Origin: a bacterium
GTDB lineage: Bacteria > SAR324 > NAC60-12
Direction: 5' to 3'
Length of the DNA stretch: 64,000 nt
NCBI GenBank assembly: GCA_965205865.1
Contig: CBDBHR010000030.1
Location: 1,191,866 to 1,255,865, forward strand
Shown here: one piece after another, positions 4,354 to 64,000 of the stretch
Layout of the letters: each line of letters starts with the position of its first letter
Numbering within the stretch: position 1 is the first letter of the stretch
Made by a program: the position numbers and the translations under genes
Notes under the pieces: generated by a model
Database searches by the model: none
Told to the model about the DNA's origin: nothing
The model's input: only the letters and a program-made list of their open reading frames with translations

Positions 4354-4433
4354 GTTTTGCCTTCTATTGTGTTTTCATCTATCAGCGGTCAGCGATCAGT
4401 CCCCTGAAAGCTGAAAGCTGGTAACTGATACAG

Positions 4434-5523: not shown

Positions 5524-7254
5524 CTAGAAGCCCATTTCCTTTTTGAGGTCTTGATCAATCCAGATGCGGGCATACACGGGGCCTTCTCGCATCAATCCCA
5601 GGAGGATTTCACCATCAAAACCGCCAATGTAAGGATGCCAGACTTGAAAATTCGCATGGGGCAGCAGCGACACTTGATAATGCTGTTCGGTCCAACGCCG
5701 GGTGACCGCCTTCATGGCTTTGACAAAGTCCTCATGAGTCTTGGCGTTGATTGCGGCGTCCATCAAAATTTCCATGGTGGGATCTTTCAATAAGTTATAG
5801 ATGCAACAGGAGGTGGTTCTGGGATCGAATTGCAGCGTTGCCCACAAGAGCGGGTCAATATTCACTGCGGCCCAACCGTAGTGGAGTTCATAACCTGCAC
5901 GGGTTTCGGAGATCATCGTCCAAAAATCCCCCCACTCCATCTCGATGATCTCGGCCTCAATGCCAATCTCGCGAAGATAGCCCGTAGCGATCTGGACGAT
6001 GTTCCAATCCTGTTCCTGCCGCGCGGCATGGATGGTGGTCTTGAATCCGTTGGGGTAGCCCGCATCGGCCAGGAGCCGCTTGGCTCCTTCCGGGTTGTAC
6101 TCATAAGCTTCCCGGATATGCTTCGGCATCTCACTCAAGGGAGTAAAAAATTCCGCAGCTGATTCTCCCAGGGCCGGATAGATGATAGGAGGCACATGCC
6201 CCTGGTAATATTCCGAGGACATCTCCTCGTAATTCATGGCCATCTGCATCGCTTTACGGACCCTTTGGTCGGCCCAGGGATGGTTCGGATCGTCAAACAA
6301 ATACCCGATTGCCCAGGATTCCAAAACCCAGCTCTTCACCTGAATGTCCGGGTGGGTCTTTTTGAGCAGATTAAATTCCTCAATGTTGAGCGCAGCGATG
6401 TTGCCTTTGCCAATATGGTCGACCTGACCGGTGCGAATCGCAGCCATGCGGGTGGCTGTCTCTTTGATGATCAGCCAGCGGACTTGATCCAAAAAGGGCA
6501 GCTTGTACTGTGGATCCAATTCATAGCTTCCCCAGTAGTCCGGATTTTTCTCCCAGGTGACCGAACTGCCTTCTTGATAATCTTTGAGCATCCAGGCCCC
6601 TGTGCCGACTTGTTCTTTCCAATCGGTCAAGTCACCATGTTCTTTCGGGAAGATTTTGTCCGCATTAGACTGCGTGAGAAAAGTATTTTCGAGATGGATG
6701 CTGGGCTTATGCTTGATGACCACCGTATACTCATCTCTGGCCTCAACAGATTTGATACCATAGGGATCCCACGTTTGTCCTCCCTTGGAAGCTTCCGTAA
6801 AACCCGACCCTAGCCCCAGGAGCCGGTGAAAGGAGTAGACGACGTCCTTCGCCGTCATTTCTCTTCCATTGGTCGGGGGTCTGTTATGAAAGTGAATCCC
6901 TTTGCGCAGGTAAAACACCATGGTTTCAGGATCTTCTATTTCATAACGTTCGGCCACCCAAGTGGTACCGCACGCCTTGACCGAATAGTCTATCGTCCAG
7001 GGACACTGATCGCGGGGTTTGCTCCAGTCGCCAAAACCGAGTTGCTCATAGACATAGCTGGGTTGCGGGTTTAAATCAATGTGCGGATCCCAACTGGTGA
7101 TGGTATGGCCCACCGTGGTGAACGTCCCTCCATATTGAGGAGTCTTTGTGGCCATCTTCTGGCCCAAAGTGAAAGTGGGGAAGATCAACAGGATCACCCC
7201 CAATGCAATGAAACCATAAATTCGTTTGAACATGAAATTTTTCAGTACAGACAT
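5524..7254 (-). CDS. ABC transporter substrate-binding protein, family 5 (peptide/nickel/opine type), cluster 1
   Basis: Signal peptide, 576 aa. Shares the QYGGTF, KAMQMA and C-terminal WIDQDLKKEMGF signature with the two other SBP paralogs in the window. Confidence 0.85.
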   Translation of the reverse strand: MSVLKNFMFKRIYGFIALGVILLIFPTFTLGQKMATKTPQYGGTFTTVGHTITSWDPHIDLNPQPSYVYEQLGFGDWSKPRDQCPWTIDYSVKACGTTWVAERYEIEDPETMVFYLRKGIHFHNRPPTNGREMTAKDVVYSFHRLLGLGSGFTEASKGGQTWDPYGIKSVEARDEYTVVIKHKPSIHLENTFLTQSNADKIFPKEHGDLTDWKEQVGTGAWMLKDYQEGSSVTWEKNPDYWGSYELDPQYKLPFLDQVRWLIIKETATRMAAIRTGQVDHIGKGNIAALNIEEFNLLKKTHPDIQVKSWVLESWAIGYLFDDPNHPWADQRVRKAMQMAMNYEEMSSEYYQGHVPPIIYPALGESAAEFFTPLSEMPKHIREAYEYNPEGAKRLLADAGYPNGFKTTIHAARQEQDWNIVQIATGYLREIGIEAEIIEMEWGDFWTMISETRAGYELHYGWAAVNIDPLLWATLQFDPRTTSCCIYNLLKDPTMEILMDAAINAKTHEDFVKAMKAVTRRWTEQHYQVSLLPHANFQVWHPYIGGFDGEILLGLMREGPVYARIWIDQDLKKEMGF

Positions 7255-32421: not shown

Positions 32422-32464
32422 TCGTTATGCTTCTGGTAAATATAGGTTTGAGATTCGTCTGTCA

Positions 32465-32885
32465 GAAGTAGTCCCTGAGGGACGAAAGGAAGTAGCCCAG
32501 CGATTCATCGCTGGGAACAAAAGATAGTCTCCTTCAAAGTCCCGGAGGGACGATACAACAATGAGGTTTCATGTCCCATTCCTACATCAGCAATCATCTT
32601 CATGGTGTCTTTTGCGCAAAAAACCGAGTTGAGATGATGACTCCTGAAATCAAAAAGCGCCTTTTTCCTTATTTGACATCATGAGCGTTATATTTGGGAG
32701 TAACTCGCTGGATCGAAGAAGTGTCGTCCCTCCGGGACTAGCTGAGGAGGAGGGGGGTTCCTTTCCCAGCGATGAATCGCTGGGCTATTCCCTTTCGTCC
32801 CTCTGGGACTAGCTGAGGAGGGGGTTCCTTTCCCAGCGATGAATCGCTGGGCTATTCCCTTTCGTCCCTCCAGGACTGCATTATA
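32465..32885. repeat. Cluster of short hairpin repeats inserted between the two permease genes of cluster 2
   Basis: Hairpin cccagcgattcatcgctggg at 32496, and its reverse complement twice (32766, 32833) inside a tandem ~70-bp unit. Multiple gtccctNNgggac palindromes. Confidence 0.7.
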
Positions 32886-32899
32886 GAAAAATCGAGAAC

Positions 32900-33868
32900 A
32901 TGAGCGACAGCATAGAGACGCCATCCCCGATCATTGAGTCCAAGCGACGGGGCCGGTTTGTGGATTTCTTCATCAGGCTGATCAGGGAAAAGCCCCTCGG
33001 GACGTTTGGCGGGATAGTCACCTTGATCTTTATTTTGTTGGCGATCTTTGCCGAGCTTCTGGCGCCTTATCCCTATCGGGAAATACACCTGGCCGACATA
33101 CTAAAAGGCCCAGCCGCCCAGTATCTGCTGGGGACCGACCATTTGGGGCGAGACCTGTTGAGCCGCCTTCTCTACGGGGCTCGTATTTCCTTGACCGTCG
33201 GTCTGGCCGCGACGGTGCTGAATGTGGTGGTCGCTGTCCTGATTGGCGGCACTTCCGGATTCCTGGGGGGGAAAGTGGACCTGGCGGTGCAGCGCTTTGT
33301 CGATGCCTGGATGGCCTTCCCGGGGCTGCTCTTGTTGTTAACCATCATGTCCATCGTGGGACAAGGCCTCCTCCAGATCATCGTGGTGTTGGGGATTACC
33401 GGAGGTGTCGGCGGCTCCCGAGTCATCCGAGGCGCCGTGGTGGGCATCAAAGAGAATGACTATTTCCTGGCAGCCAGGGCCGTAGGCACTCCCACGCGCC
33501 ATATCCTGACCCGCCATGTGCTGCCCAATATTATGGCGCCCCTCATCATCATCTTCTCGATCAACATTGGCGGCGTAATCATCGCCGAGGCGTCGCTGAG
33601 CTTCCTGGGATTCGGGCTGCCCCTCAAGGTTCCCAGCTGGGGAGGAATGCTCAGCCGGGAAGGGCGGGAATTCATGGAGCGGGCGCCCCGGCTGGCGCTC
33701 TGGCCGGGGCTGTGCCTGACGATTGTCGTCTACTCTCTCAACATGTTCGGAGACGCCATGCGAGACCTGCTGGATCCCCGGCTGCGAGGCGGACAGGGAA
33801 GTTACGGCGCCACGGGGAAACGCAAACGAGGTCTCTTGGCCCGACTGATCAACCCTTTCAACTGGTAA
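32900..33868 (+). CDS. ABC transporter permease, DppC-like (cluster 2)
   Basis: LLGTDHLGRD, SLTVGL, GDAMRDLLDPRLRG. Confidence 0.85.
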   Translation: MSDSIETPSPIIESKRRGRFVDFFIRLIREKPLGTFGGIVTLIFILLAIFAELLAPYPYREIHLADILKGPAAQYLLGTDHLGRDLLSRLLYGARISLTVGLAATVLNVVVAVLIGGTSGFLGGKVDLAVQRFVDAWMAFPGLLLLLTIMSIVGQGLLQIIVVLGITGGVGGSRVIRGAVVGIKENDYFLAARAVGTPTRHILTRHVLPNIMAPLIIIFSINIGGVIIAEASLSFLGFGLPLKVPSWGGMLSREGREFMERAPRLALWPGLCLTIVVYSLNMFGDAMRDLLDPRLRGGQGSYGATGKRKRGLLARLINPFNW

Positions 33869-33931
33869 GCGCGCAATATGAAATATACTCGCCTGAATCG
33901 AATGGTCTCTTAAGAGACCTCAATAGTAACC

Positions 33932-36749: not shown

Positions 36750-36985
36750 TAACCTGAGTTCGACATAAATCTTCAATAATATGAGTATCCTAGCGTATAT
36801 GTCATCCTCGCGAAACTTGTCCCCGCGAAAGCGGGGAGCGGGGATCCGGATTTCAGTCTGGCTGCATACCTCCGGATTCCTTCCCTGCGTACGCAGGGAT
36901 CTCGCAGGAATGACAAGGTTTCTCTAAGATATGAAGATTCCATAACATATTGAATTTATTAAATTCTTATCTCGAACTCAGGTTA
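36750..36985. mobile_element. MITE copy A (~236 bp, Tc1/IS630-like, TA-flanked), inverted relative to copies B and C
   Basis: TIR TAACCTGAGTTCGACATAA ... TTATCTCGAACTCAGGTTA. Internal palindromes ccctgcgtacgcaggg and ccccgcgaaagcgggg. TA dinucleotide at both junctions. Confidence 0.8.
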
Positions 36986-37702: not shown

Positions 37703-37743
37703 AAGCCTTACCGTGCTGGAGGTTATTGGTAATAAACCTGAGT

Positions 37744-37984
37744 TCGAGATAAAAATTTAATAAATTCAATATGTTATGGAATCTTCATATCTTAGAGAAA
37801 CCTTTTCATTCCTGCGAGATCCCTGCGTACGCAGGGAAGGAATCCGGAGGTATGCAGCCAGACTGAAATCCGGATCCCAGCTCCCCGCTTTCGCGAGGAC
37901 AAGTTTCGCGGGGACAAGTTTCGCGAGGATGACATATACACTAGGATACTCATATTATTGAAGATTTATGTCGAACTCAGGTTA
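37744..37984. mobile_element. MITE copy B (~241 bp)
   Basis: Same element as 36750-36985 in the opposite orientation, with a short internal duplication (gacaagtttcgcg x2). Confidence 0.8.
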
Positions 37985-39448
37985 ACAATAGTTTTCCCGG
38001 ATCTGAAGAATCAGTTGAGTTTTCAAATCAAAAAGGGATTTTTCAATCCCCACCGGATATTGATGGGGATTGACGAATCGCGCGATACCGGGATGAAACT
38101 GGCACAATCCTTGCCGTACCTTCTTTCTGATTTGTTGAATGGAAGGCGTAGTATACACTTTTTTTCCTTTTTTGAAAATAGGAATCAACAAGTCTTCGGA
38201 TTGCATACCTGCAGGAATTTTTCGCTGCCGGGTCATGTCTAAGGGATCGACGATGGTGCATCCCTTGCTCAAGTCCGAATGGATGTCAAAAATCACATCT
38301 GCGCTATTTTCCTGCTCTGTGCGATAACGTCGAACCTGTTGAACGCCGGGTGTCGTCACTTTCACGGCTTGTTCAGAGATTTTGACGCGATGTTCCCAGG
38401 ACTGGCCGGGCTCTCGGGTTGCCGCAAGTTTATAGACACCGTCTAATGCCGGCTGGTCATAGGCAGTAGCCAATTTTGTACCGACACCCCACATGTCGAT
38501 TTTTGCATTTTGGTTTTTCAAACTGGCAATGATGAATTCGTCCAATTCATTGCTGACGACAATTTTTGTATCGGAAAACCCATTTTCGTCCAGCATCTTT
38601 CGCGCTTCAATGCTCAGGTACGCCAAATCCCCCGAATCCAGTCGGATTCCCAACAATGGATAGCCCTGAGCTTTCAGCCAACGTCCGGTTGCAATGGCAT
38701 TTTTCACGCCTTGCAGAGAAGAATAGGTATCGACGATGAGTACGCAGTTATTGGGTGAGGATTCAGCATAAGTCTGAAAGGCTTCCGCCTCTCCCGCAAA
38801 GCTCATCACCCAACTATGGGCGATGGTTCCGACAACCGGAATGCCGAAATTTTTCCCTGCCAATACGTTTGAAGTCCCCGCGCACCCTCCGATAAAAGAT
38901 GCCCGGCTGACCGTTAAACCACCGTCCACTCCTTGCGCGCGTCGAAGCCCGAATTCCAGAACAGGATCGCCTTTTGCGGCCAGACAGACGCGCGCGGCTT
39001 TGGTGGCAATCAAAGTCTGAAAGTTGATGATATTGAGTAAAATGGTTTCCAGTATCTGGCACTGCGCAAGGGGCCCCTGCACCCGTATCAGGGGTTCATA
39101 GGGAAAGACCACCGTTCCTTCGGGAATTGCATCGACATCGCATTGGAAACGAAGGGTTTTCAGATAACGCAAAAAATCTCTATGAAAGAGGGCTTTCTCA
39201 TCAATGCCTTGCAAAGAAGCCAGGTAGTCGAGTTCTTCCTGTTCAAAGCAGAAATTGTCCAGTAATTCGATGACGTTTTCTAAACCGCAGACGATGCCGA
39301 ATCCTCCTTTAAAAGGAAGGGTTCTGAAAAATAAATGAAATACGCTTTCTTTGGAAGCAATGCCGCTTTTCCAGTACCCGTAAGCCATGGTGAGTTGATA
39401 GAGATCTGTCAAAAGAATAGAATAACGTGAAATTCCTGGAGCTGTCAT
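37982..39448 (-). CDS. pncB: Nicotinate phosphoribosyltransferase
   Basis: 488 aa; LTDLYQLTMAYGYW N-terminal signature of NAPRTase. Confidence 0.9.
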   Translation of the reverse strand: MTAPGISRYSILLTDLYQLTMAYGYWKSGIASKESVFHLFFRTLPFKGGFGIVCGLENVIELLDNFCFEQEELDYLASLQGIDEKALFHRDFLRYLKTLRFQCDVDAIPEGTVVFPYEPLIRVQGPLAQCQILETILLNIINFQTLIATKAARVCLAAKGDPVLEFGLRRAQGVDGGLTVSRASFIGGCAGTSNVLAGKNFGIPVVGTIAHSWVMSFAGEAEAFQTYAESSPNNCVLIVDTYSSLQGVKNAIATGRWLKAQGYPLLGIRLDSGDLAYLSIEARKMLDENGFSDTKIVVSNELDEFIIASLKNQNAKIDMWGVGTKLATAYDQPALDGVYKLAATREPGQSWEHRVKISEQAVKVTTPGVQQVRRYRTEQENSADVIFDIHSDLSKGCTIVDPLDMTRQRKIPAGMQSEDLLIPIFKKGKKVYTTPSIQQIRKKVRQGLCQFHPGIARFVNPHQYPVGIEKSLFDLKTQLILQIRENYC

Positions 39449-47223: not shown

Positions 47224-48384
47224 ATGAATCATTCTGACAATGTCCATCGACTGCAACTGAAAGACAAGGAAGTGCTTCTCATTGGGACAGCCCACATTTC
47301 TCGAGAAAGTACCAACGAAGTGATGCAGGTGATTGAACACGAACAGCCCAAGACGGTTTGTGTCGAACTGTGCAAGTCTCGATATGAAGCTCTTTCCCGC
47401 AAAGACCACTGGAAAAGCATGGACATATTCAAAGTTATCCGGGAGAAAAAAACTTTTTTACTCCTGGCCAATATCATCCTGGCTTCTTTTCAAAAAAGGC
47501 TGGGGAACAAATTGGGCATTCAACCCGGCCGGGAAATGATCGTAGCCATTGATTCGGCAAAAGCCATTCAGGCAAACATTGTGCTGGCAGATCGAGACGT
47601 ACAAACCACCTTTCTGAAAACCTGGCGCATGCTTCCTTTTCGGGAAAAAGTGAAAGTGCTCATGCAGATGATGATGAGTGTTTTTGTCTCGGAGGAAATC
47701 AGCCGAGACGATATCGAAAAAATGAAGACCCAGGATGTGTTGACAGAAACCATGGAGATCTTCTCCCGTCAATCACCAATGATGAAAAAGGTTCTCATTG
47801 ACGAACGAGATCAATATCTTGCAGAAAAAATCAGGACGGCGCCCGGGGAAAAAATCGTCGCGGTGGTGGGCGCAGGACATGTACCTGGAATAAAAAAAGA
47901 AATAAACCACTCGCACGACTTACCTGTCTTGGAACAGGTACCATCTCCTGCGCGGTGGGGAAATTGGTTGAAATGGGGTATTCCTGCCTTGATCATCTCC
48001 TTGATTGCTTATGGTTTTTTTCTCGCCGATTGGAATGTTGGCATTGAAATGGTAAAACGCTGGTTTTTGATCAATGGGATTTTGTCGGCTCTCGGAGTAG
48101 TACTGGCGGCAGGTCATCCTTTGACCATCCTTTCTGCTTTCATTGCCGCCCCTTTCACGTCTCTGAATCCTACCATCGCAGCAGGTTGGGTTGCCGGGTT
48201 GGTCGAAGCGTTTGTGCGTAAACCACAGGTTCGGGATTTTGAAAACCTCATGGAGGACATCACCCATATCTCCGGATTCTGGAGAAACAAAGTCACCCGT
48301 ATTCTTCTGATTGTTGTTTTTGCGAATGTCGGCAGTATGGTGGGGACATTCATTGGCGGTGGGGCCATCATCGAACTATTGTAA
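47224..48384 (+). CDS. TraB/GumN-family protein with C-terminal TM segments
   Basis: LIGTAHIS...TVCVELC...VVGAGHV motifs of the TraB family. Confidence 0.75.
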   Translation: MNHSDNVHRLQLKDKEVLLIGTAHISRESTNEVMQVIEHEQPKTVCVELCKSRYEALSRKDHWKSMDIFKVIREKKTFLLLANIILASFQKRLGNKLGIQPGREMIVAIDSAKAIQANIVLADRDVQTTFLKTWRMLPFREKVKVLMQMMMSVFVSEEISRDDIEKMKTQDVLTETMEIFSRQSPMMKKVLIDERDQYLAEKIRTAPGEKIVAVVGAGHVPGIKKEINHSHDLPVLEQVPSPARWGNWLKWGIPALIISLIAYGFFLADWNVGIEMVKRWFLINGILSALGVVLAAGHPLTILSAFIAAPFTSLNPTIAAGWVAGLVEAFVRKPQVRDFENLMEDITHISGFWRNKVTRILLIVVFANVGSMVGTFIGGGAIIELL

Positions 48385-48595
48385 CCTGAGTTCGAGATAA
48401 GAATTTAATAAATTCAATATGTTATGGAATTTTCATATCTTAGAGAAACCTTGTCATTCCTGCGAGATCCCTGCGTACGCAGGGAAGGAATCCAGAGGTA
48501 TGCGGCCAGACTGAAATCTGGATCCCCGCTTTCGCGAGGATGACATATACACTAGGATACTCATATTATTGAAGATTTATGTCGAACTCAGGTTA
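48383..48595. mobile_element. MITE copy C (~213 bp)
   Basis: TAACCTGAGTTCGAGATAA...TTATGTCGAACTCAGGTTA with TA on each side. Same internal palindromes as copies A and B. Confidence 0.8.
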
Positions 48596-48620
48596 TTGTG
48601 AGAATCTCGGGAGAACACGG

Positions 48621-49238
48621 ATGTTGCGGTTTTTTTTCGATGTCGATGGAGTTTTACTCAATTTTGAAAAGAGTTATGTCCGTGTCTTGAAGGACTATTT
48701 TAAATTGGACGTTCCTGATGATTTCGAGATGGCAGACTGGTTTTTCAAGGATGTGCTGGATGAGAATCAACTCAAAGAAAGCTGGGAATATTTTATCGGC
48801 AGCGACCATTTTAGCCGACTCTCTCCGCTAATCAACCCGGAACGGTTCAATCGTGTCTTTGGGGCCTACCCAGTGCATTTCATCACAAATATCCCTCGAC
48901 AGTATTTAGAAAAGCGAAAACAAAACCTGAAAGATGCTGGATTTCGCTGGCATTCCCTGCATTGTGGCGGAATGGTATCCTTTGATTACAATCCTCCGGT
49001 GACCAAGGCAGAAATTATCCGTCAGCTGGCGCGGGATGAGGAGATATTGGTATTCGTGGATGATCATCCGGACAATTGTATGAACGTTCATGAGCATTTT
49101 TCTCAAGCAAAAGTCTGGCTTATTTCTCGTCCTTTCAATCAACATTTCACTCATTCCGTGATTCGCCGCGCCGATCATTGGGATACCCTCATTGCCTTTT
49201 CAAAAGACTTGATCAACGCCGTAGTGAATCACCGCTGA
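48621..49238 (+). CDS. HAD-superfamily hydrolase, 5'(3')-deoxyribonucleotidase-like
   Basis: FFDVDGVL (HAD motif I, DxDGV) at the proposed start; ~205 aa. Confidence 0.5.
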   Translation: MLRFFFDVDGVLLNFEKSYVRVLKDYFKLDVPDDFEMADWFFKDVLDENQLKESWEYFIGSDHFSRLSPLINPERFNRVFGAYPVHFITNIPRQYLEKRKQNLKDAGFRWHSLHCGGMVSFDYNPPVTKAEIIRQLARDEEILVFVDDHPDNCMNVHEHFSQAKVWLISRPFNQHFTHSVIRRADHWDTLIAFSKDLINAVVNHR

Positions 49239-54684: not shown

Positions 54685-56112
54685 ATGACAAATGCGGAAG
54701 ACAACATTCTGATGACAACCATTGCTGATGAGATATTGAGAGAAGCGCTGCGTCGCAAAGGCATTGGACCGAAAGGAAGTAAAAAGCTACCCGCTTCGAT
54801 GTTGCAACAAGTCCTCCCTATGCTTTCGGAAGCAGAAACCAACCGAACCACCGCGGCTGCTTTCTGGACAGCCTGTTTGTTGTTGGATAATTCTGATGAA
54901 GAAGAACAATACATCGCTCCCGTCAAACAACAACCAGGTCGATTTCTTTTACCGGAATTGCAGGCATTGACTACCCTAACAACGGATCGGAAATTTTCCG
55001 CCGAATTTTTAGCGATCATTCGTAAGTTGATTGAAAGGCGCGATCTGTCCGTTGCGGAAGCGCAAAATGCCATGGAATATTTTTGGAAAGATAGTGTTCC
55101 GGAATGGATGAAAGGGGCTTTCCTGCAAGCAGAGAGGATCAAACGGGAAAGTTTCGAGGAAAATATTGTATTTTTTGATTCCCTTTGGGTCCAAGGACAA
55201 CGCATCGAAGTGGATCTGCCCACTTTAGTGGATTTATGTGATAGTTATGATGGCACCAATCGCAGTTACCATTTGACCCCTTTTGTCGCGGCGCTGCTTG
55301 GCGCATCAGGGGTTCCCACCGTATTGCATGGCATTGAATCACTGGGTCCCAAATACGGCATCACTACGGCCCAAATTCTTCGCCAGGCCGGTAAATCCAC
55401 AACGCACTCTTTGCGGCAAGCCAAAGAAAACCTGCTCAATCCGGATATTCATTGGTGTTACGTTGATCAATCCGTCTCCTTTCCGCAATTGTTTGCCATG
55501 CGCCGATTGCGTCATGATATGGTCAAACGTCCTTTTTTGGCGACTTTTGATAAATTGCTGCAACCCATTCACAATCGAAGGGGCAACATTGTCATTACCG
55601 GCTATGTCCATGCCCATTACCGAAGCGAGATCATCAAACTCCTGAGCCTGCGCAATCAGAACCACATGGCTTTCAACTTAAGGACCATTGAAGGGTCCAC
55701 AAACTGCTGGGGGAAAAAACCCACTCCTTATATTGGTTTCCATCGAGGGGCCAACAATCTGAATTTGGGAGGAATGCAACTCCCCTGTTCAATGAATCCG
55801 GAACTTCCGGTTGCAGAGTTCCTCACTACAGAGGGGAATCATCTCGTAGAAGGAGAACTGTTGCCTGAAGATTTTGGCATTCACCGTGAGGATCATCGCT
55901 TGATCAAAGGGATTACGGCTTTGCAAACGGCTCGAGGCGGGCTCTCGGCTTTGCAAGGGGAACGCGGATTGATCCACGATTTACTGATCTATCAAGCCGC
56001 CGCATTTCTGTGGCTCAGTCGCGTGGCGCCCGGTAAAAGAGAGGCTGCTGAACAAGCTCGAGAGACTCTTCAATCAAAAAAAGCCTGGAGGCATTGGCAA
56101 AAACAAATCTGA
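54685..56112 (+). CDS. TrpD-like protein (glycosyl transferase family 3 / anthranilate phosphoribosyltransferase-like), divergent
   Basis: N-terminal helical Glycos_trans_3N-like segment, and CDSYDGTNRSYHLTPFVAALLGASGVPTVLHG resembling the TrpD GTGGD...KHGNR core. Confidence 0.55.
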   Translation: MTNAEDNILMTTIADEILREALRRKGIGPKGSKKLPASMLQQVLPMLSEAETNRTTAAAFWTACLLLDNSDEEEQYIAPVKQQPGRFLLPELQALTTLTTDRKFSAEFLAIIRKLIERRDLSVAEAQNAMEYFWKDSVPEWMKGAFLQAERIKRESFEENIVFFDSLWVQGQRIEVDLPTLVDLCDSYDGTNRSYHLTPFVAALLGASGVPTVLHGIESLGPKYGITTAQILRQAGKSTTHSLRQAKENLLNPDIHWCYVDQSVSFPQLFAMRRLRHDMVKRPFLATFDKLLQPIHNRRGNIVITGYVHAHYRSEIIKLLSLRNQNHMAFNLRTIEGSTNCWGKKPTPYIGFHRGANNLNLGGMQLPCSMNPELPVAEFLTTEGNHLVEGELLPEDFGIHREDHRLIKGITALQTARGGLSALQGERGLIHDLLIYQAAAFLWLSRVAPGKREAAEQARETLQSKKAWRHWQKQI

Positions 56113-56188
56113 ATTTCACCTCTGTTTTATTTTTTTTACCACCTGACCGCTAGAAAATTCTCTGGTCTGAATAAAAGAAAAATATATT

Positions 56189-57436
56189 ATGTCTACTGCT
56201 CAAAAAGAATTATACGAACTCGGAGAAATGCCGGAACCGGGAATGGTTCCACAGAAAATGCATGCCTTCCTGGTACGTCAGGATCGCTTTGGTGAACCTC
56301 GCAATGCCTGGAAAAGGGAAATCATCCCCACTCCCGAAATTGGCCCGAAAGACGTCCTGGTTTATGTGATGGCCAGCGGCATTAACTACAATAACGTTTG
56401 GGCTGCTTTGGGTTATCCGCTCGACGTGATTGCAGATCGTCAGAAAAAAGGGGAGTCCGAAGATTTCCATGCTGGCGGCAGCGACTGTTCCGGGATTGTC
56501 TGGAAAGTAGGGAATGCGGTGAAAGACTGGAAAGTGGGGGATGAAGTGGTCGTTCACAGTGGTTGGTGGAAACCGGACGATCCCTGGGTGCTTTCAGGAA
56601 AAGATCCGATGCTTGCTTCCAGTACTCGAATTTGGGGTTATCAGACCAACTATGGCAGTTATTGTCAATTTGCCCGGGCGCAATCCCATCAATTGCAACC
56701 GAGGCCCCGGCATCTCACCTGGGAAGCCTCGGGTTGCTATATGTTGTGCGCATCCACGGCATACCGCATGCTGATGGGATGGGAATCTCATATCGTCGAG
56801 AAGGACGACGTGGTTCTGGTCTGGGGAGCTGCCGGAGGACTCGGCAGTTTGGCATTACAAATCACCGCTGCTCACGGAGGGAAACCGGTTGCAGTGATTT
56901 CTGATGAAGACAAACGACAATACTGTTTGAACCATGGCGCTGTAGGAGTGATCAACCGCAAGGACTTTGACCATTGGGGTCCCATGCCTGACACGACGAC
57001 AGCGGAATATAATCCTTGGATTAAAGCGGCGCGTTCTTTCGGCAAAGCAATTTGGCAAATCCTGGGAGAGCGTAAAAATCCCCGCATTGTCTTTGAGCAT
57101 CCTGGAGAATCCACCTTACCCACTTCTGGCTTTGTATGTGACACGGGTGGTATGATTGTGATTTGCGCAGGAACCAGCGGATACAACATCACTATGGATT
57201 TACGTTACCATTGGATGATGCAGAAACGCTTCCAGGGCAGTCACCTTTCCAATGATGAGCAGGCTGCCGCCGTAAACCGGCTTATTGCTGATAAAAAAGT
57301 GGATCCCTGCTTATCCGAGACCTTGACTTTCGACCAAATTGGCTATGCCCATCAGATGATGCATGAAAACAAACACCCCTATGGCAATATGGCCTGCCTG
57401 GTCAACGCCACGGAGAAAGGGCAGGGCGCTTCTTGA
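56189..57436 (+). CDS. ccr: Crotonyl-CoA carboxylase/reductase family enoyl reductase (MDR superfamily)
   Basis: LYELGEMPEPGMVP...SGINYNNVWA...AGGSDCSGIV...VWGAAGGLGSLA: a CCR-family pattern. Confidence 0.75.
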   Translation: MSTAQKELYELGEMPEPGMVPQKMHAFLVRQDRFGEPRNAWKREIIPTPEIGPKDVLVYVMASGINYNNVWAALGYPLDVIADRQKKGESEDFHAGGSDCSGIVWKVGNAVKDWKVGDEVVVHSGWWKPDDPWVLSGKDPMLASSTRIWGYQTNYGSYCQFARAQSHQLQPRPRHLTWEASGCYMLCASTAYRMLMGWESHIVEKDDVVLVWGAAGGLGSLALQITAAHGGKPVAVISDEDKRQYCLNHGAVGVINRKDFDHWGPMPDTTTAEYNPWIKAARSFGKAIWQILGERKNPRIVFEHPGESTLPTSGFVCDTGGMIVICAGTSGYNITMDLRYHWMMQKRFQGSHLSNDEQAAAVNRLIADKKVDPCLSETLTFDQIGYAHQMMHENKHPYGNMACLVNATEKGQGAS

Positions 57437-57723
57437 TGATAAAAATCAATCACTGTAACGATTCGGGATTCTTCGGAGACTCCTTCGATTTGAGCACGCA
57501 TTTTGCGTCATGAAATAGAGAAAGGATTTTATGTTTTGGGTGGTATTCAGGATACAGATCTTATGGAGGATGGGAGAACAGATGCTCTTTCTGTTTGACC
57601 TAGTCCAGTTGTTTCTCCAGGTAGTAACTGATGTTACGTGCACGATTTTTGCAGTTATGCGTCTCATCGAGTTGTCATTCCTGGCGAAGACCAGGAATCC
57701 ACTTTGCTAGCGATCCAGGGTGA

Positions 57724-58008
57724 CTAAAACGTTTCATATAAATCTATCCATTGAGGATTATTTTTCTCAATGAGTTCGATTTTCCAAGCTCGTTTCCATT
57801 TCTTACGTTGTTTTTCTCTCCGGAGAGCAGCTGTTACCTCTGAAGTGGTCTCATGGTATATCAATTGATGTACTTGGTATTTACTGGTAAATCCTTCTAT
57901 GAGATTGTTTTTATGTTCATAAACTCTTCTAAGAAGATCATTGGTCACTCCAATATATAAAGTGCCAATTCTTTTACTTGCTAAGATATAAACGTAGTAG
58001 GTTTTCAT
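57724..58008 (-). CDS. GIY-YIG nuclease-domain small protein
   Basis: YYVYILASKRIGTLYIGVTNDLLRRVYEHK is a GIY-YIG motif; ~95 aa. Flanked by inverted copies of gtcattcctggcgaagaccaggaatcc (57676-57706 and 58018-58050). Confidence 0.75.
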   Translation of the reverse strand: MKTYYVYILASKRIGTLYIGVTNDLLRRVYEHKNNLIEGFTSKYQVHQLIYHETTSEVTAALRREKQRKKWKRAWKIELIEKNNPQWIDLYETF

Positions 58009-58329
58009 GATGGCGACTCCTGGATTCCTGGTCTTCGCCAGGAATGACACACTTGTGGGGAAGCGTATTCATGGAAACCGCTGAATGCAAAAAATATTCA
58101 TGTAACATGACGTCTCGACTTTGAACATTTTATCCAACTTTTGGGTTTAATAAAATCAATGTCTTACGAATCTGTATTGGAATTAATACAGGTCGTATCA
58201 TCAAAAATGGAAAACAGTAACCTGTATTAATTTTTTACAGAATTTCAACCAATTGATATTATTGAATAATGAAAATTAAAAGAATAAAGAATCCACCTTC
58301 TTAGAAGGTGGTTTTGATGGGCCCCTGGA

Positions 58330-58500
58330 AGGGGCGGCTCGTGATCGTACTCGTGAGCCGTGCTCGTGAACGAAACGGCATCCCAGAGAATCCAGGATTC
58401 CCTGCCGTCTCTTCTATTCGTAATCCCCATCTCAAGGGAATCGGGAACGTTTCTATCGAGCACGTGCACGAGCACGATTACGAACACGAGCACGTTTCTG
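58330..58500. repeat. Imperfect long inverted repeat (~40-bp arms around a ~70-bp spacer)
   Basis: ctcgtgatcgtactcgtgagccgtgctcgtgaacgaaacg ... cgtttctatcgagcacgtgcacgagcacgattacgaacacgag. Confidence 0.4.
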
Positions 58501-59055
58501 GCAGAGCCGATTATCTCTGACCACGCCCAAAGGACGTGGTTTCATCAGATAAAATAAATCGAATGTCCAAAGTCCAGGAGGGGGAATAAAGTTGTTGTTT
58601 TTTTCTGAGGGTTAAAGAATTTCTGCTGGTCTTTTGCTTTCTCTTGTGATAGTTCTCGAGAAATCGTCTTTGGCTGAAGGTTTTATTTCAATTTCGCTCA
58701 TATTTATTTAGCCGAAAGTCATGTAAAACATCATATCCTCACCAGAGGATTTTTAGAAACTGTCAACGGGGAATTGAAAAGTGCCAAAAATGTTGACTTC
58801 CGTATTTCTATATGAAAAAGTATTTTCGTTGATCATAAGAATACACTCATGAATGAATGAGTCGCCATATTTAAAAAAATCTTGATACGTTTGCAGAGCG
58901 ATTATAATATTTTATTCCAGGGACGGAAAAGCAATAATGAGATCCTTCGCTTTGCCGCTCGGCGTACCGTCAGGATGACATGAAAGTCTGAAATTAACCC
59001 GTTTCAAGTATAAAAAATCTTGATAATGAGGTGGATATGAGAGTAAACTCAAAAA

Positions 59056-59123
59056 CCAGTTCCCAGTTCCCAGTTCCCAGTTCCCAGTTCCCAGTTCCCA
59101 GTTCCCAGTTCCCAGTTCCCAGT
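59056..59123. repeat. Microsatellite (CCAGTTCC)x8.5
   Basis: Perfect 8-bp tandem repeat read directly from the sequence; degenerate gttccc copies continue to about 59230. Confidence 0.9.
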
Positions 59124-59365
59124 AATAAGTTCCGAGCACCAAGCTCCCAATCACAAGTTCTACCTCCTTATATTATCTCGACTTCAGGGAGAGATCCCTA
59201 AGATTCCTCGTTCCCAATTCCCCGTTCCGGGAACGGAACGGCAATGGGGAATTTGGAAAATCATCGACGCCTGAGTGCGTCGGTTTATGGTTCATTGCCC
59301 AATCCTGGAGCCAATGAATCGGTTTTTTGATCACTTGAAAATGAAGGAGACCCAATGTGTAGAGC

Positions 59366-59525
59366 AATCGTCGAGAACATGCTTTCTGGAACGAAAGCAG
59401 GTTTTAAAGCAACCCGCAATCTTGTTTTTAATCAAAAAGCAAAAAGGAGCACCATGAACCGTCAAAAAAGTAGAGAAATCGTCGAGAACGTGCTTTCGGG
59501 AATCAAAGCAGGTTTTAAATCAATC
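59366..59525 (+). repeat. Duplicated ~47-bp hairpin-containing segment in the leader of SBP-3
   Basis: aatcgtcgagaacatgctttctggaacgaaagcaggttttaaagcaa and aatcgtcgagaacgtgctttcgggaatcaaagcaggttttaaatcaa, 111 bp apart; each carries a tgctttc/gaaagca stem. Confidence 0.6.
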
Positions 59526-59558
59526 CTTAATTATGAACATCCATTCGAAAGGAAAAAG

Positions 59559-61328
59559 ATGTTTAATCAAAGAAGCAGCTCAAAATTGAGCGCAACCCTG
59601 CTGGCTCTCATCCTGGGAGCAAGCGTCTTCATGGCTGGCCAGGTCTGGGCAGCCAAGTATGTGACGGACCCCACCAACGGCAAGATAGTGACCGCTCCGG
59701 AATACGGCGGGACATTCACCTATGCCATGAATAACGAACCTACCGCAGTTGACGTCTGGTTCCACCACGGGGCGGTACCTGTCATCAGTGGTGTTTTAGA
59801 GAAGCTAGGCACCGTGAACTGGGGAATAGATAGGGCCGAATATAACTTCGTGGGTCTGGTCCAGCCTGAATTTGCCACGACAGGGCAGCTGGCGGAAAGC
59901 TGGGAGATGCCCGACGACAGAACCATTGTCGTCAAAGTCCGCCAAGGCGTTCACTGGCATAATAAGGCACCGATGATCGGTCGGGAGCTGACTGCCAAGG
60001 ATATCGAATACAACTTTCACCGCTTGATGGGTCTGGGCAAGTTTGCCGAAGCCGGACCTACCAACATTACCCAGGTTCTCAGAACTGTGTCATTCGAATC
60101 GATAACGGCCACCGACAAATGGACGGTTGTTTTTAAGCTGAAGAAGCCACACCTCGGTGCGCTGATGGGTATCCTCGAGGACTGGATTGCTTATATGTAC
60201 CCCCCCGAGGTATTCGAGCAATACGGCGACGCTCAGGATTGGAGGAACCTGGTCGGTACCGGGCCCTTTATGCTGACTGACTGGGTCGAGGGCAGCTCTA
60301 TGACCTGGGACAAGAATCCTGACTACTGGGGCTACGACGAAAAATACTCGCAGAACCGGCTGCCCTATGTTGACCAGATAAGGGCCCTGACTATGCCCGA
60401 AGTGGCAACACAACGGGCGGGACTGCGCTCGGGTAAGCTTGATGGCTTGTATGGCGGGACTGCGATAAAGTCTGTCGACGCGGCAGAGAGCCTTGAGCGG
60501 GCCAACCCCGAAATCAAGCTGTGGAAGAGGGTCACTGCTTCGGTCTTTAGTACTGGTCTTAACATCAATAAGCCGCCCTTTAACGACATCAGGGTGCGCA
60601 AGGCAATGCAGATGGCACTGGACCTTGAGACAATTAACAGTGCCTTCTTTAAGGGTCATGGAGATACGACACCTCACGGGCAGGTAGGGGATGCTGTCCC
60701 CGGGTATTTCATCCCATTTGAAGAGTGGCCCGCCGAGCTCAAGAAAGTCTATGACTATAACCCGGAAGGGGCAGAAGCCTTGATTGATGCGGCTGGGTAT
60801 CCGCGCGGCGCCGACGGCATTAGATTCAAGACCAAGTTGATGCACAACGTGCACAAGGATTTGAACTATTACCAATTACTCGCTGCATACTGGAATAAGA
60901 TTGGCATTGACGTTGAGATTGATTTTCCGCCTATTGCTACCTGGGTGGCTAGAAGAACCTCTCGGGATTTCGAAATGATCGAACACGAAATGGCCTATGG
61001 GAGTCTGTCTGATCCTCTCAATCCTGTGAACCGCTTTACCAACGTTCCGTGGAACAGCGCCGCAGTGGAGGACCCGGTTTATGACGCCATGTTTGAAGCC
61101 GCCGGAGCCGCTACCACCATCGAGGAGCTGCAGAGGCTGGTTAAAGAGCTGGATATGTACGCGATAGAGAGGCACTGGACCGTATGGAGTCCTATGAATC
61201 CAAATTTTGACGCCTTCCAGCCGTGGATCAAAGGTTACGACGGTGAATTCACGTTGTCATACATTCATAGACATTTCGTCCTCGCCCGCCTCTGGATTGA
61301 CCAGGAACTGAAGGACAGGACCCAGTAA
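59559..61328 (+). CDS. ABC transporter substrate-binding protein, family 5 (cluster 3); start taken at MFNQ
   Basis: Signal peptide; EYGGTF, KAMQMA and WIDQELK signature; ~60% GC. Confidence 0.8.
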   Translation: MFNQRSSSKLSATLLALILGASVFMAGQVWAAKYVTDPTNGKIVTAPEYGGTFTYAMNNEPTAVDVWFHHGAVPVISGVLEKLGTVNWGIDRAEYNFVGLVQPEFATTGQLAESWEMPDDRTIVVKVRQGVHWHNKAPMIGRELTAKDIEYNFHRLMGLGKFAEAGPTNITQVLRTVSFESITATDKWTVVFKLKKPHLGALMGILEDWIAYMYPPEVFEQYGDAQDWRNLVGTGPFMLTDWVEGSSMTWDKNPDYWGYDEKYSQNRLPYVDQIRALTMPEVATQRAGLRSGKLDGLYGGTAIKSVDAAESLERANPEIKLWKRVTASVFSTGLNINKPPFNDIRVRKAMQMALDLETINSAFFKGHGDTTPHGQVGDAVPGYFIPFEEWPAELKKVYDYNPEGAEALIDAAGYPRGADGIRFKTKLMHNVHKDLNYYQLLAAYWNKIGIDVEIDFPPIATWVARRTSRDFEMIEHEMAYGSLSDPLNPVNRFTNVPWNSAAVEDPVYDAMFEAAGAATTIEELQRLVKELDMYAIERHWTVWSPMNPNFDAFQPWIKGYDGEFTLSYIHRHFVLARLWIDQELKDRTQ

Positions 61329-61597
61329 CAGGCCGACTGGAAGTACTTATGGACCGGGCAGTACTGCCCGGTCCACTCTAGTACTGCTGTCAGAAAATGG
61401 TTTGACCTTCTGTTAAGGTAATAATGAGTCCTGTTTGTCATTCCGGGCGAAGACCCGGAATCCGGGGGACTTACCCTAGAACTCCCAGATCCCGGATCAA
61501 GTCCGGGATGACACAGAATGGGTCAATCACTTCGTAACGCCTGTACCAGGATACACCGCGTTTCCCTGCCAATTTCAAAAATGATGAGGTCCGTCCC

Positions 61598-62605
61598 ATG
61601 AGAGCCTATATCATCAGGCGCTTATTGCTGATAATCCCCACCTTGTTTATATTGACCATCCTGGTCTTTCTCTCGGTGCGCTTCATCCCGGGCGATGTCA
61701 TAGACGTAATGATGAGTAGGATGGAAATGTACTTTAACTGGGACGAACGTGACCGTGAAGTTCTTGAGCATAAGCTGGGATTAAACGTGCCTGTGCACGT
61801 GCAGTATGGACGCTGGATAGGAGTGTTGCCGACCCCTGACTGGGTTACCGGTGAGTCCCGCTACAACGGTCTCCTCCAGGGCACCCTTGGCCAGTCACTG
61901 CTTCGCGGCCAGGAGGCGGTAGAGGAGAAGATAATAGGTAGATTGCCAGTGACCATTGAGCTTGGAGTCATGGCAATCGTGATCGGGCTCGTGATAGCGC
62001 TGCCAGTCGGCATCTATTCGGCGATTCGGCAGGATACAGCCGCCGACTACGCGGGGCGCTCCATCGCCGTCATCGGCCTGGCAACGCCTAACTTCTGGCT
62101 GGGCATCATGGTCATGATCTTCCCGGCACTCTGGTGGGGCTGGTCGCCACCGATGGAGCTGGTTTCTTTCACGGAAGACCCGCTGGGGAATCTCGGGGTG
62201 TTCCTCATTCCCAGTCTGATTCTGGGGACGGCCATGGCTGCAGCCACAATGCGGATGACGCGCACCATGATGCTGGAGGTGCTCAGGCAAGACTATATCA
62301 GGACCGCCTGGTCAAAGGGACTCAAGGAGAAGGTCGTGGTGATCAGACACGCCCTCAAGAATGCCCTCATCCCGGTCGTGACCCTGATCGGCTTGCAGTT
62401 GCCGATCCTGGTCGGCGGCGCCGTGATCATGGAGAACATCTTCAACCTGCCGGGGCTCGGGCGTCTCTTGCTGAATGCCCTCAATGACAGAGACTACCCG
62501 ATGGTTTCCGGAATAAACCTGGTTTTCGCCACTGGCGTGGTGGGGATCAATCTATTTATCGACCTGTTCTATGCCTTCTTGGACCCAAGGGTGCGGTATG
62601 AGTGA
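61598..62605 (+). CDS. ABC transporter permease, DppB-like (cluster 3)
   Basis: MRAYIIRRLLLIIPT...MRMTRTMMLEVLRQDYIRTAWSKGL. Confidence 0.85.
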   Translation: MRAYIIRRLLLIIPTLFILTILVFLSVRFIPGDVIDVMMSRMEMYFNWDERDREVLEHKLGLNVPVHVQYGRWIGVLPTPDWVTGESRYNGLLQGTLGQSLLRGQEAVEEKIIGRLPVTIELGVMAIVIGLVIALPVGIYSAIRQDTAADYAGRSIAVIGLATPNFWLGIMVMIFPALWWGWSPPMELVSFTEDPLGNLGVFLIPSLILGTAMAAATMRMTRTMMLEVLRQDYIRTAWSKGLKEKVVVIRHALKNALIPVVTLIGLQLPILVGGAVIMENIFNLPGLGRLLLNALNDRDYPMVSGINLVFATGVVGINLFIDLFYAFLDPRVRYE

Positions 62606-63344
62606 ATCAAAGCGACGGGGCCGGCTGTCGGATTTCTTCATCAGGCTGCTCAAGGAGAAGCCGCTCGGTACTGTCGGTCTGGCCGCGACGGCGCTGAATG
62701 TGCTCATCGCAGTCCTGATCGGCGGCACTTCCGGATTCATTGGCGGGAAATTCGACCTGGTGGTGCAGCGCTTTGTCGATGCCTGGATGTTTCCCGGGAC
62801 TGCTGCTCTTGTTAACCATCATGTCCATCGTGGGGCGGGGTTTGCCACAGATCATCCTGGTCCTGGGGGTCACCGGAGGCATCGGCGGCTCCCGAGTCAT
62901 CCGAGGTGCCGTAGTGGGCATTAAAGAGAATGACTATTTTCTGGCAGCCCGGCCGTAGGCACTCCCACGCGCCATATCCTGATCCGGCATGTCCTGCCCA
63001 ATATCATGGCGCCCCTGATCATCATCTTCTCGATCAACATTGGCGGCGTTATCATTACCGAGGCATCGCTGAGCTTCCTCGGATACGGGCCGCCCGTCGA
63101 GTTACCCAGCTGGGGTGGCATGCTCAGCCGGGAAGGACGCACCTACATGGAGATGGCGCCCTGGCTGGCGCTCTTTCCCGGTCTTGCCCTGACGATTGTC
63201 GTCTACTCCCTCAACATGTTCGGCGATGCCATGCGGGACCTGCTCGATCCCCGGCTTCGGGGTGGTGAGGGTCGTTACGGCACCGCAAAAGGGAGACGCA
63301 AAAGAGGTCTCCTGGCCCGATTGATCAACCCTTTCAACTGGTAA
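62571..63344 (+). pseudogene. DppC-like permease (cluster 3), inactivated by an internal ~186-bp deletion, indels near 62790 and a premature stop at 62955
   Basis: Alignment to the cluster-2 paralog: KPLGT joins directly to VGLAATALNV (losing TM1 and the GTD motif); a frame change follows VDAWM; AARP* replaces AARAVGTPTRH. The remaining frame (63006..63344) still encodes the conserved C-terminus. Confidence 0.8.
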
Positions 63345-63581
63345 GCGCAAAAAATTAGAGGTGGCTGCATTTAAGGAGAAGCCTTGGAATCTCTGTAAAA
63401 ATCCCCCTAATTCTGTCAGCTCTCTCTTGTTACGACATCCAACAATGAGTTCTAGTTCTGTAATCACACTAATTCCTATCGAACTCTGAGCCTCAATTCG
63501 TTTCAAGTAATCAATGGCTTCCTGTACGTCTCTTCCAACATCAATGAGAATATCGGTATCAATCAAAATGATTTCTGCCAT
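63345..63581 (-). pseudogene. VapC-like PIN-domain toxin, 3'-truncated remnant
   Basis: MAEIILIDTDILIDV...ISVITELELIVG gives the first two PIN acidic positions. The frame then runs antisense into the permease pseudogene, so the distal catalytic residues are missing. AT-rich relative to its flanks. Confidence 0.5.
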
Positions 63582-63730
63582 TTCTGGCTCTCCACTCTTG
63601 TTTTCTTACCCTTTGAACCCATGAGGAACTATCTTCCATATCTTTTCTATCTCTCCACATCCCCACAAATGCATCTTTTCCCAAATCTGAATAGTCGCCT
63701 TTTGATTGGTTTTGATACCGTTGAGCTAAA
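63582..63730 (-). pseudogene. VapB-like antitoxin remnant (no in-frame start codon)
   Basis: ...DLGKDAFVGMWRDRKDMEDSSSWVQRVRKQEW resembles the C-terminal region of the small antitoxins paired with PIN toxins. Its stop overlaps the vapC ATG. Confidence 0.3.
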
Positions 63731-64000
63731 GAATTATGGTTAACAAGAGCAGCAGCCCCGGGAAGGCCATCCAGGCATCGACAAAGCGCTGCACCGCCAG
63801 GTCCCATTTCCCTCCCAGAAACCCCGAAATGCCACCGATGAGGAGCGCGACGATGACATTGAGCGCCGTGGCGGCCAGACCGACGGTTAAGGAAATGCGA
63901 GCCCCGACGATCAGGCGGCTCAACAAGTCACGCCCCGTATGGTCGGTCCCCAGCAGATACTGAGCGGAGGGACCAGTCAGCCGATCGGCCATGCGCATTT
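63726..64000 (-). CDS. DppC-like permease, 5' portion of a fourth copy (enters the window from the right; truncated at 63726)
   Basis: LLGTDHTGRD...VDAWMAFPGLLLLLTIIL*; homology to the other copies ends right after gttaaccat, at the junction with the AT-rich vapBC segment. Confidence 0.65.
   Translation of the reverse strand, partial: MRMADRLTGPSAQYLLGTDHTGRDLLSRLIVGARISLTVGLAATALNVIVALLIGGISGFLGGKWDLAVQRFVDAWMAFPGLLLLLTIIL

Follow-up and report, generated by a model that had tools for sequence, protein, structure and literature searches.

A toxin–antitoxin relic between two broken dppC permease genes in a paralog-rich bacterial locus

Bacterial genomes that are host-associated or rich in paralogs are known to hold loci crowded with pseudogenes and insertion sequences (ISs), in which paralogous genes drive rearrangement. 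Here we describe one such locus at the end of a 64,000-nucleotide stretch of DNA (the window; NCBI GenBank assembly GCA_965205865.1, contig CBDBHR010000030.1, positions 1,191,866 to 1,255,865 of the forward strand) from a bacterium placed in the GTDB lineage SAR324, NAC60-12. Positions 62598-64000 carry a pseudogene of a dppC/oppC-type permease, remnants of a vapC (PIN) toxin gene and its DUF2281-type antitoxin gene, and the 5′ part of a further dppC gene that faces inwards (Table 1). The feature is of a known kind, a type II toxin–antitoxin relic between ATP-binding cassette (ABC) permease pseudogenes in a paralog- and IS-rich locus, and represents ordinary genome decay, not a new system. Comparison with related contigs leads us to regard it as very probably a genuine, non-functional relic, for which we propose three events in a set order accompanied by exchange among permease paralogs.

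The permease pseudogene (copy 3) belongs to the third of three dpp clusters in the window and follows an intact binding-protein gene and an intact dppB gene, the usual order in peptide/nickel ABC importers. Its start codon, the ATG at 62598, overlaps the stop of dppB; an earlier reading made from the sequence alone (the sequence-only reading) had begun the element at 62571, which is only the start of a spurious open reading frame (ORF) within dppB. We called the lesions of copy 3 by alignment with intact paralogs, namely the cluster-2 dppC (32900-33868) and the dppC genes of L081 and L001 (L-numbers, L001-L003 and L080-L093, denote the related contigs compared with the window). The internal deletion, flanked by ‘AC’ microhomology, takes out the first transmembrane segment and the periplasmic loop after it, in the OppC_N region. 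The sequence-only reading had correctly reported frameshifts and a premature stop in this gene but had put the deletion at 186 bp, six short of the length given by the paralogs. An apparent +1 insertion at 62799 proved to be normal variation once several paralogs were aligned.

BLASTN of 62501-64000 against the whole window resolves copy 3 into two blocks on either side of the deletion, 62603-62671 matching cluster-2 dppC at 32935-33003 (84 %) and 62670-63348 matching it at 33194-33872 (85.8 %). The same search finds the cluster-1 dppC (3415-4353, minus strand) as a distant fourth copy with 65 % identity; copies 3 and 4 stand at 80-86 % DNA identity to intact paralogs in cluster 2 and in the related contigs. 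The cluster-1 and cluster-2 genes encode full OppC_N plus BPD_transp_1 permeases (Pfam). Copy 3 is matched by NCBIfam and Pfam only as three fragments, each in another frame, with no more than BPD_transp_1 positions 91-183 falling within one frame (Pfam); it has no continuous ORF of ~300-325 amino acids with OppC_N (PF12911) and a full BPD_transp_1 (PF00528), as DppC/OppC permeases have.

Between the two permease genes, the G+C content falls to 39.9 % (63345-63732), versus 59.6 % and 61.2 % in the permease DNA on both sides. The toxin remnant begins within 63350-63356, just past the native 3′ flank of dppC, and the minus strand from 63581 to 63354 translates to MAEIILIDTDILIDVG...NAATSN. It scores 24.2 bits against Pfam PF01850 (cut-off 23.6, profile positions 1-62 of 120) and 27.1 bits against NCBIfam VapC NF047959 (cut-off 80, positions 1-69 of 125). 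The sequence-only reading had seen a truncated PIN toxin in an AT-rich segment of ~390 bp, and the profile search bears this out above the Pfam cut-off, with half of the profile covered. A complete PIN nuclease domain comprises ~130 amino acids with all conserved acidic active-site residues. Only ~76 PIN-derived residues are left here: D8 and E42 are kept, and the C-terminal ~53 residues have gone together with the remaining conserved acidic residues (by comparison with P0003, P0006, P0009 and P0023). The part that would align with ‘...LIPD.LIAATA...KN..D..F’ in full-length homologues is absent, with antisense dppC in its place, and the PIN frame stays open antisense through dppC to 63102, creating a 159-residue ORF that is without meaning. 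Database matches to the remnant are mostly PIN proteins of 126-136 residues with 47-65 % identity, the nearest intact VapC being just 61-62 % identical, and its only close relatives (87-94 %) are likewise truncated (ORFs of 74, 101 and 159 residues). Exact protein look-up returned no record for this 159-residue ORF, the 82-residue junction ORF or the 657-residue binding protein.

The partner antitoxin gene upstream of vapC is intact in sister haplotypes, and the window retains only the end of it. By tblastn, the remaining tail is 96.6 % identical to residues 24-81 of an intact 81-residue frame in L003; the gene runs for 73 residues from its ATG to the original stop, with 8 more in the read-through allele. 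The window lacks the promoter side of the gene and its first 23 codons, the start codon included, and the ancestral stop (63583-63585) has mutated from TGA to AGA, extending the frame to 63559. Intact alleles (P0124 and P0121, annotated with 79 or 87 residues) match DUF2281 at 30.6-30.8 bits (cut-off 26.5, residues 9-59). The 58-residue tail of the window has no DUF2281 match in a Pfam profile search, and a Sigma70_r2 match (18 bits, below cut-off) was discarded as spurious. The antitoxin tail of the sequence-only reading is thereby matched to an intact gene and a family, and the fragment itself is best classed as derived from a DUF2281 member and not as a member. The ORF is intact (79 or 87 residues) at all 13 other island-bearing loci and its protein is identical among contigs of six samples; a conserved antitoxin 29-mer had no exact match in the JGI metagenome collection.

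Copy 4 converges on this island. It stops after GTTAACCAT, and alignment together with two further contigs, L092 and L093, confirms the sequence-only reading of a convergent, truncated fourth dppC copy that is cut after gttaaccat. It shares 81-86 % DNA identity with the 5′ parts of dppC paralogs, including 82.8 % (BLASTN) with cluster-2 dppC 33348-33081 in the opposite orientation. Extension to the right, as had been suggested, is provided by L092, which adds 337 nt and supplies the start codon, 181 nt past the end of the window; the 156 nt 5′ of that codon are non-coding, with no dppB adjoining. The ORF so completed has 151 residues, made of 149 dppC codons followed by I-L-stop from antitoxin DNA, and comprises OppC_N and BPD_transp_1 positions 2-40 of 184 only, that is, no continuous permease. 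Two recorded proteins, P0129 and P0211, are these 151-residue truncated products, both ending ...LLLLTIIL. The alleles on either side define the junction: dppC reads ...GTTAACCAT followed by CATGTCC, the antitoxin gene reads ...TTTCATT followed by AATTC, and the window reads ...GTTAACCAT followed by AATTC, joining dppC to antitoxin codon 24 with an overlap of ~1 nt.

Table 1. Features at the right-hand end of the window (coordinates are window positions).
Feature	Coordinates	Strand	Remarks
Binding-protein gene, SBP_bac_5, intact	59355-61328		Upstream of copy 3
dppB-type permease gene, intact	61598-62605	+	Upstream of copy 3
dppC/oppC-type permease pseudogene, cluster 3 (copy 3)	62598-63344	+	~86 % DNA identity to cluster-2 dppC
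Junction of 192-bp (64-codon, in-frame) internal deletion	62670-62671	+	Paralog alignment
2-nt deletion, frameshift	62789-62790	+	GGATG^TTTCCC versus GGATGGCCTTCCC in all intact paralogs
Premature TAA in shifted frame of copy 3	62922-62924	+	
1-nt deletion (GCCC^GGCC)	62950-62951	+	Original frame regained
Patch of clustered differences, 79 nt	63122-63200	+	13 of the 20 differences between window and haplotype A (L082) in 62598-63736
Native 3′ flank of dppC, GCGCAAAAA	63345-63353	+	Also in paralogs without toxin–antitoxin genes
5′ part (~codons 1-76 of ~129) of vapC (PIN) toxin gene	63354-63581	-	Pfam PF01850, NCBIfam VapC
3′ part of DUF2281-type antitoxin gene: last 50 of 73 native codons and 8-codon read-through	63562-63735	-	tblastn to L003
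Antitoxin/dppC-4 non-homologous junction, ~1 nt microhomology	63733-63736		Haplotypes A, B and C are homologous up to this point
5′ part of dppC paralog (copy 4), cut by window end	63733-64000	-	

The lesions and junctions are genuine, and not artefacts of assembly or sequencing. Exact look-up of the DppB-3 protein led to three contigs from other samples with an identical protein. One related contig, L003, is 98.6 % identical to window 58576-63736 with all of the dppC lesions present, and these lesions are identical in L003, L082, L083 and L091 (four contigs from three other samples). Contigs of this haplotype (A) part from the window precisely at 63733-63736 and run on into the remainder of the antitoxin gene. 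The rearranged form itself is found in L092 and L093, SPAdes short-read contigs from two further samples that were reached through the truncated copy-4 protein. Over the 1120 nt of window 62881-64000, the former (1457 bp) has a single mismatch and no gap, and it takes in the -1 frameshift as well as both the PIN/dppC and the antitoxin/dppC-4 junctions; the latter (618 bp) matches 63634-64000 with 0 mismatches in 367 nt and no gap. The lineage of the window locus was found only in ENA assemblies, and the window junction had no exact match in the JGI metagenome collection. Searched with the copy-4 fragment, GTDB genomes gave 311 relatives, many of them within the same few metagenome-assembled genomes (MAGs), and none above 84 % amino-acid identity; as far as the copy-4 gene can tell, the species appears not to be represented there. 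These related MAGs carry dozens of dppC paralogs per genome and bear titles naming Dehalococcoidia, Spirochaetia or just ‘bacterium’; some of the MAG series in the titles are probably sponge-derived.

Among the related contigs, the locus exists in at least five structural versions. Type W (the window, L092 and L093) has the dppC-3 pseudogene, the PIN remnant, the antitoxin tail and the truncated dppC-4. Type A (L082, L083 and L091) has a W-like dppC pseudogene and PIN remnant with an intact antitoxin gene, followed by a further dppC remnant, adh_short, HpcH and onwards to ChaC; L003 is a type A with two insertions, an IS256-type element of ~1.38 kb and an IS630-family element. The latter was inserted 4 nt ahead of the ATG of the antitoxin gene, with a duplicated TA dinucleotide target and terminal inverted repeats TAGTAAAAT.../...ATTTTTACTA. 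Type B (L080/L089, L081/L086, L084, L088 and L090) shares a ~98 % identical ChaC/HSP33/CNNM flank and an island with the same PIN/dppC-stop junction, in which the PIN remnant has extra indels; its convergent dppC is intact or otherwise broken, and a 3′-truncated dppB lies upstream of the antitoxin. Type C (L085 and L087) holds the antitoxin and ~25 PIN codons only, in another setting next to a second, intact PIN toxin–antitoxin pair, and in type D (L001 and L002) dppB-3 is intact, dppC-3 is cut to 34 + 145 nt and the island is absent. As a side observation outside the relic, 469 nt of the window (58107-58575) are replaced in haplotype A (L003, L082 and L083) by an unrelated segment of ~130 nt between sides that are 98.7-99.6 % identical; the window segment has no homologue among the related loci fetched.

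The haplotypes differ from each other in a patterned way. Whereas the ChaC/HSP33 flanks of A and B are ~98 % identical and the type-B island is 95-100 % identical to that of the window per 100 nt, type-B dppC stands at 70-100 % per 50 nt (~85 % overall), no closer to the window than other paralogs are. W, A and B agree to the nucleotide in the boundary between PIN and the dppC stop. Between the A and B types, identity rises towards the dppC 3′ end, from 86 % (63222-63321) through 94 % (63322-63371) to 96-100 % in the island, a climb that suggests crossing over within the conserved 3′ end of dppC. Likewise, since 79 nt hold 13 of the 20 differences that separate haplotype A from the window, 63122-63200 is probably a short gene-conversion tract from some paralog.

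These comparisons support, as the most economical, a history whose order of events, with deletion as the mechanism of its last step, we infer from the shared and private features of the haplotypes. At the start, a vapC–DUF2281 toxin–antitoxin pair would have stood convergent to a dppC gene. In a first step, the 3′ half of vapC would have been deleted and the remainder joined ~6-12 nt past the dppC stop, killing the toxin; the PIN/dppC junction is common to W, A and B. In a second step, in the lineage of W and A, dppC-3 would have acquired the 192-bp deletion and two frameshifts, and the antitoxin its stop mutation. In a third, confined to W, an illegitimate join would have put the 5′ 447 nt of another dppC in place of antitoxin codons 1-23 and of all that lay upstream of them, perhaps through a deletion of ~5-6 kb from an arrangement like that of type C. 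There, in L085, a dppC gene (3884-4852) lies upstream of the antitoxin on the same strand, and it is the closest relative of copy 4 when the upstream spacer is included (89.6 %). Two other origins for copy 4 were discarded: the minus-strand dppC remnant of L003 (9250-10214), only 78 % identical, and a fold-back or inverted duplication, copy 4 being only 84 % identical to copy 3. Alongside these steps, homologous exchange among dppC paralogs would have given the island a different permease cluster and produced the 79-nt conversion patch, and insertion sequences would have entered sister haplotypes. All three structural joins in the window (the 192-bp deletion, the join of PIN to the dppC flank and that of the antitoxin to dppC-4) are non-homologous.

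We judge that 62598-64000 probably encodes no working permease, toxin or antitoxin, since copy 3 is broken, copy 4 keeps only 149 N-terminal residues, the PIN remnant is short of half its fold and part of its active site, and the antitoxin has neither its start nor its first 23 residues. Several observations weigh against this account. No near-identical intact dppC-4 was found, the best DNA matches being 86-90 %, and the best match for a donor of the conversion patch is only 91-92 %. The right flank is known for the 337 nt of L092 only, so that the third step may have been a simple deletion but also an inversion or a translocation. Both dppB-3 and the binding-protein gene are intact, the DppB-3 protein being unchanged in the three other contigs; the two may still operate with a paralogous DppC, and cluster 3 as a whole may not be entirely dead.

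One other explanation, which is unlikely, is that a benefit from the orphan DUF2281 antitoxin, for example anti-addiction immunity or a regulatory role, keeps the island in place, the window being an allele that lost it. The antitoxin ORF is intact in 13 of the 13 other island loci, while the PIN remnant gained indels in haplotype B, and orphan DUF2281 proteins have been reported from marine genomes (PMC12654330). Yet three of the three substitutions between antitoxin alleles are non-synonymous, in a sample too small for a selection test, and the IS630-family element 4 nt 5′ of the start codon in L003, together with the truncation in W, indicates that loss is tolerated. It is similarly doubtful that the island of ~0.66 kb (a 194-nt spacer, the DUF2281 gene and the 5′ part of vapC) persists under antitoxin selection or as the marker of a recombination hotspot. 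If it did, the orphan antitoxin might act, for example, as immunity against incoming elements bearing vapBC, with the window allele having just lost the system; a hotspot, for its part, would mean that dpp/opp paralog cassettes are shuffled and the uptake repertoire of a host-associated bacterium diversified.

The sequence-only reading had invoked recombination between permease paralogs around a toxin–antitoxin module. For the locus at large this holds, as the island sits on different dppC paralogs and a conversion patch is present, but it does not account for the join at gttaaccat, where the partner is the antitoxin gene and microhomology is ~1 nt. Homologous recombination or inversion between the inverted dppC copies 3 and 4 that flank the module is a distinctly unlikely origin for the copy-4 junction. 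The two copies do form an inverted repeat (62670-62822 versus 63887-63733, 155 bp, ~84 % identity; 83.9 % by BLASTN) whose inner end is the truncation point of copy 4, and paralog exchange is clear at the locus. A crossover within that repeat, however, would yield hybrid dppC genes and would shift, not make, a dppC/antitoxin join, and copy 4 is as far from copy 3 as from other paralogs (81-86 %). We thus read this junction as an illegitimate join produced by deletion or rearrangement, and not as a paralog crossover.

We consider it highly improbable that the island is a recently spread mobile cassette inserting beside dppC genes and not a vertically inherited relic. An island that is 95-100 % identical in at least four contexts, beside dppC genes that vary between 70 and 100 % per 50 nt, might suggest such spread, as might an antitoxin protein that is identical in contigs from six samples. 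However, transposase, terminal repeats and target duplications are all lacking from the island; W, A and B join it to the dppC stop at one and the same nucleotide, implying a single event; the ChaC-side flank of A and B, at ~98 %, makes the identity of the island ordinary and the dppC genes the outliers; and its toxin half is dead, with more indels in some alleles. The chance that homopolymer errors made the frameshifts and that low-coverage long-read assembly produced the dppC-4 piece by mis-joining or folding back is negligible, for although the names of related contigs suggest low coverage (2x to 22x), the -1 frameshift sits in a short C/G run and the junction coincides with the inner end of the inverted repeat, the same lesions occur in four other contigs from three other samples, the repeat arms are too different, at 84 %, for a fold-back of one molecule, and chimera and sequencing error are excluded because the W junctions recur, gapless and at 99.9-100 % identity, in the independent SPAdes contigs L092 and L093 of two further samples.

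The pair from which the relic descends resembles type II modules of VapC (PF01850) and DUF2281 (PF10047 / COG5559). PIN/DUF2281 pairs are described in Synechocystis (sll0205/ssl0385 and sll1092/ssl2138; PMC4963859), and one marine VapC/DUF2281 pair has been validated as a toxin–antitoxin module (PMC12654330). The locus shares with them the order of antitoxin then toxin, with 1 nt between the antitoxin stop and the toxin start in haplotype B and an overlap of the two in the window after the change from TGA to AGA, as well as the N-terminal PIN motif (D8 and E42) and, in sister haplotypes, antitoxins above the Pfam cut-off; it departs from a working pair in the ~53 residues lost from the toxin C terminus and the 23 codons and start codon lost from the antitoxin. 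The flanking genes, although clearly of DppC/OppC type by DNA identity, differ from working permeases in that copy 3 lacks OppC_N and is spread over three frames and copy 4 ends after BPD_transp_1 position 40 of 184. With pseudogene- and IS-rich ‘junkyard’ loci, the region has in common several haplotypes between conserved flanks, IS entry, deletions with 1-3 nt of microhomology and gene conversion; its one particularity is that the permease genes change around a dead toxin–antitoxin island that stays constant.

The surroundings of the relic add several observations. None of the three clusters in the window has adjoining ATPase genes (Pfam), and no RNA family was detected in 56000-64000 (Rfam). 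A 29-nt palindromic element, TGTCATTCCTGGCGAAGACCAGGAATCCA, occurs at 57673-57701 and 58021-58049 as a perfect inverted pair flanking a GIY-YIG nuclease gene (57724-58050, minus strand), at 61435-61463 in the gap between the binding-protein gene and dppB-3, and again upstream of dppC-4 (L092 ~1-60); with 3 matches in the window versus 0 expected, it could be REP-like (repetitive extragenic palindromic) or mark the ends of a small mobile GIY-YIG cassette. Some 230 nt 5′ of the cluster-3 binding-protein ORF, a perfect tandem heptanucleotide, (CCAGTTC) x 9.7, occupies 59056-59123 and is possibly slippage-prone. Within the 5′ end of that ORF lies a 62-nt direct repeat (59359-59420 and 59470-59531, 111 nt apart, 85 %); translation probably starts further downstream, close to the signal peptide.

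Other repeats and mobile elements are spread more widely. A dispersed repeat of ~240 nt is present in the window at 36750-36985, 37735-37994 and 48375-48621 and elsewhere in full or partial copies with 74-100 % identity (L085 8260-8495, L082 3201-3349 and 9185-9268, and others), and looks like a family of intergenic or MITE-like (miniature inverted-repeat transposable element) repeats. In cluster 2, dppB and dppC are separated by a spacer of ~480-520 nt (32422-32899), a place at which stop and start codons overlap in cluster 3 and L001; part of the spacer (32695-32810) recurs in L085 at 6610-6722 (90 %), and it is probably another inserted repeat. Beside cluster 1 lies an IS630-family transposase gene (DDE_3 plus helix-turn-helix (HTH) domains; window 930-2060, minus strand), and because elements of several types (IS630, IS256, IS66, IS1595 and IS21) sit within the homologous locus of related strains (for example, L003 5605-6643 and 7152-8534), insertion sequences are taken to be active in the population. 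Further toxin–antitoxin pairs stand amid dpp clusters in L081 (12843-13473), L090 (13101-13731) and L001 (4658-5269), of the types Gp49/HigB-like with dnstrm_HI1420 and Gp49 with an HTH protein, and L085 has an intact 152-residue PIN protein with a 71-residue partner; such modules between permease cassettes seem to be recurrent in the lineage.

In itself, the relic matters little beyond annotation. The dppC pieces of 117, 72 and 112 residues, the 159-residue ‘PIN’ ORF, the 82-residue antitoxin-tail ORF and the 151-residue dppC-4 ORF should be flagged as pseudogene or relic and not tallied as transporters or as defence or toxin–antitoxin genes. Taken as a set, the haplotypes are a neat natural illustration of the remodelling of a single locus, inside one population, by large families of paralogs, IS elements and illegitimate deletions; they also illustrate how a toxin can die ahead of its antitoxin.

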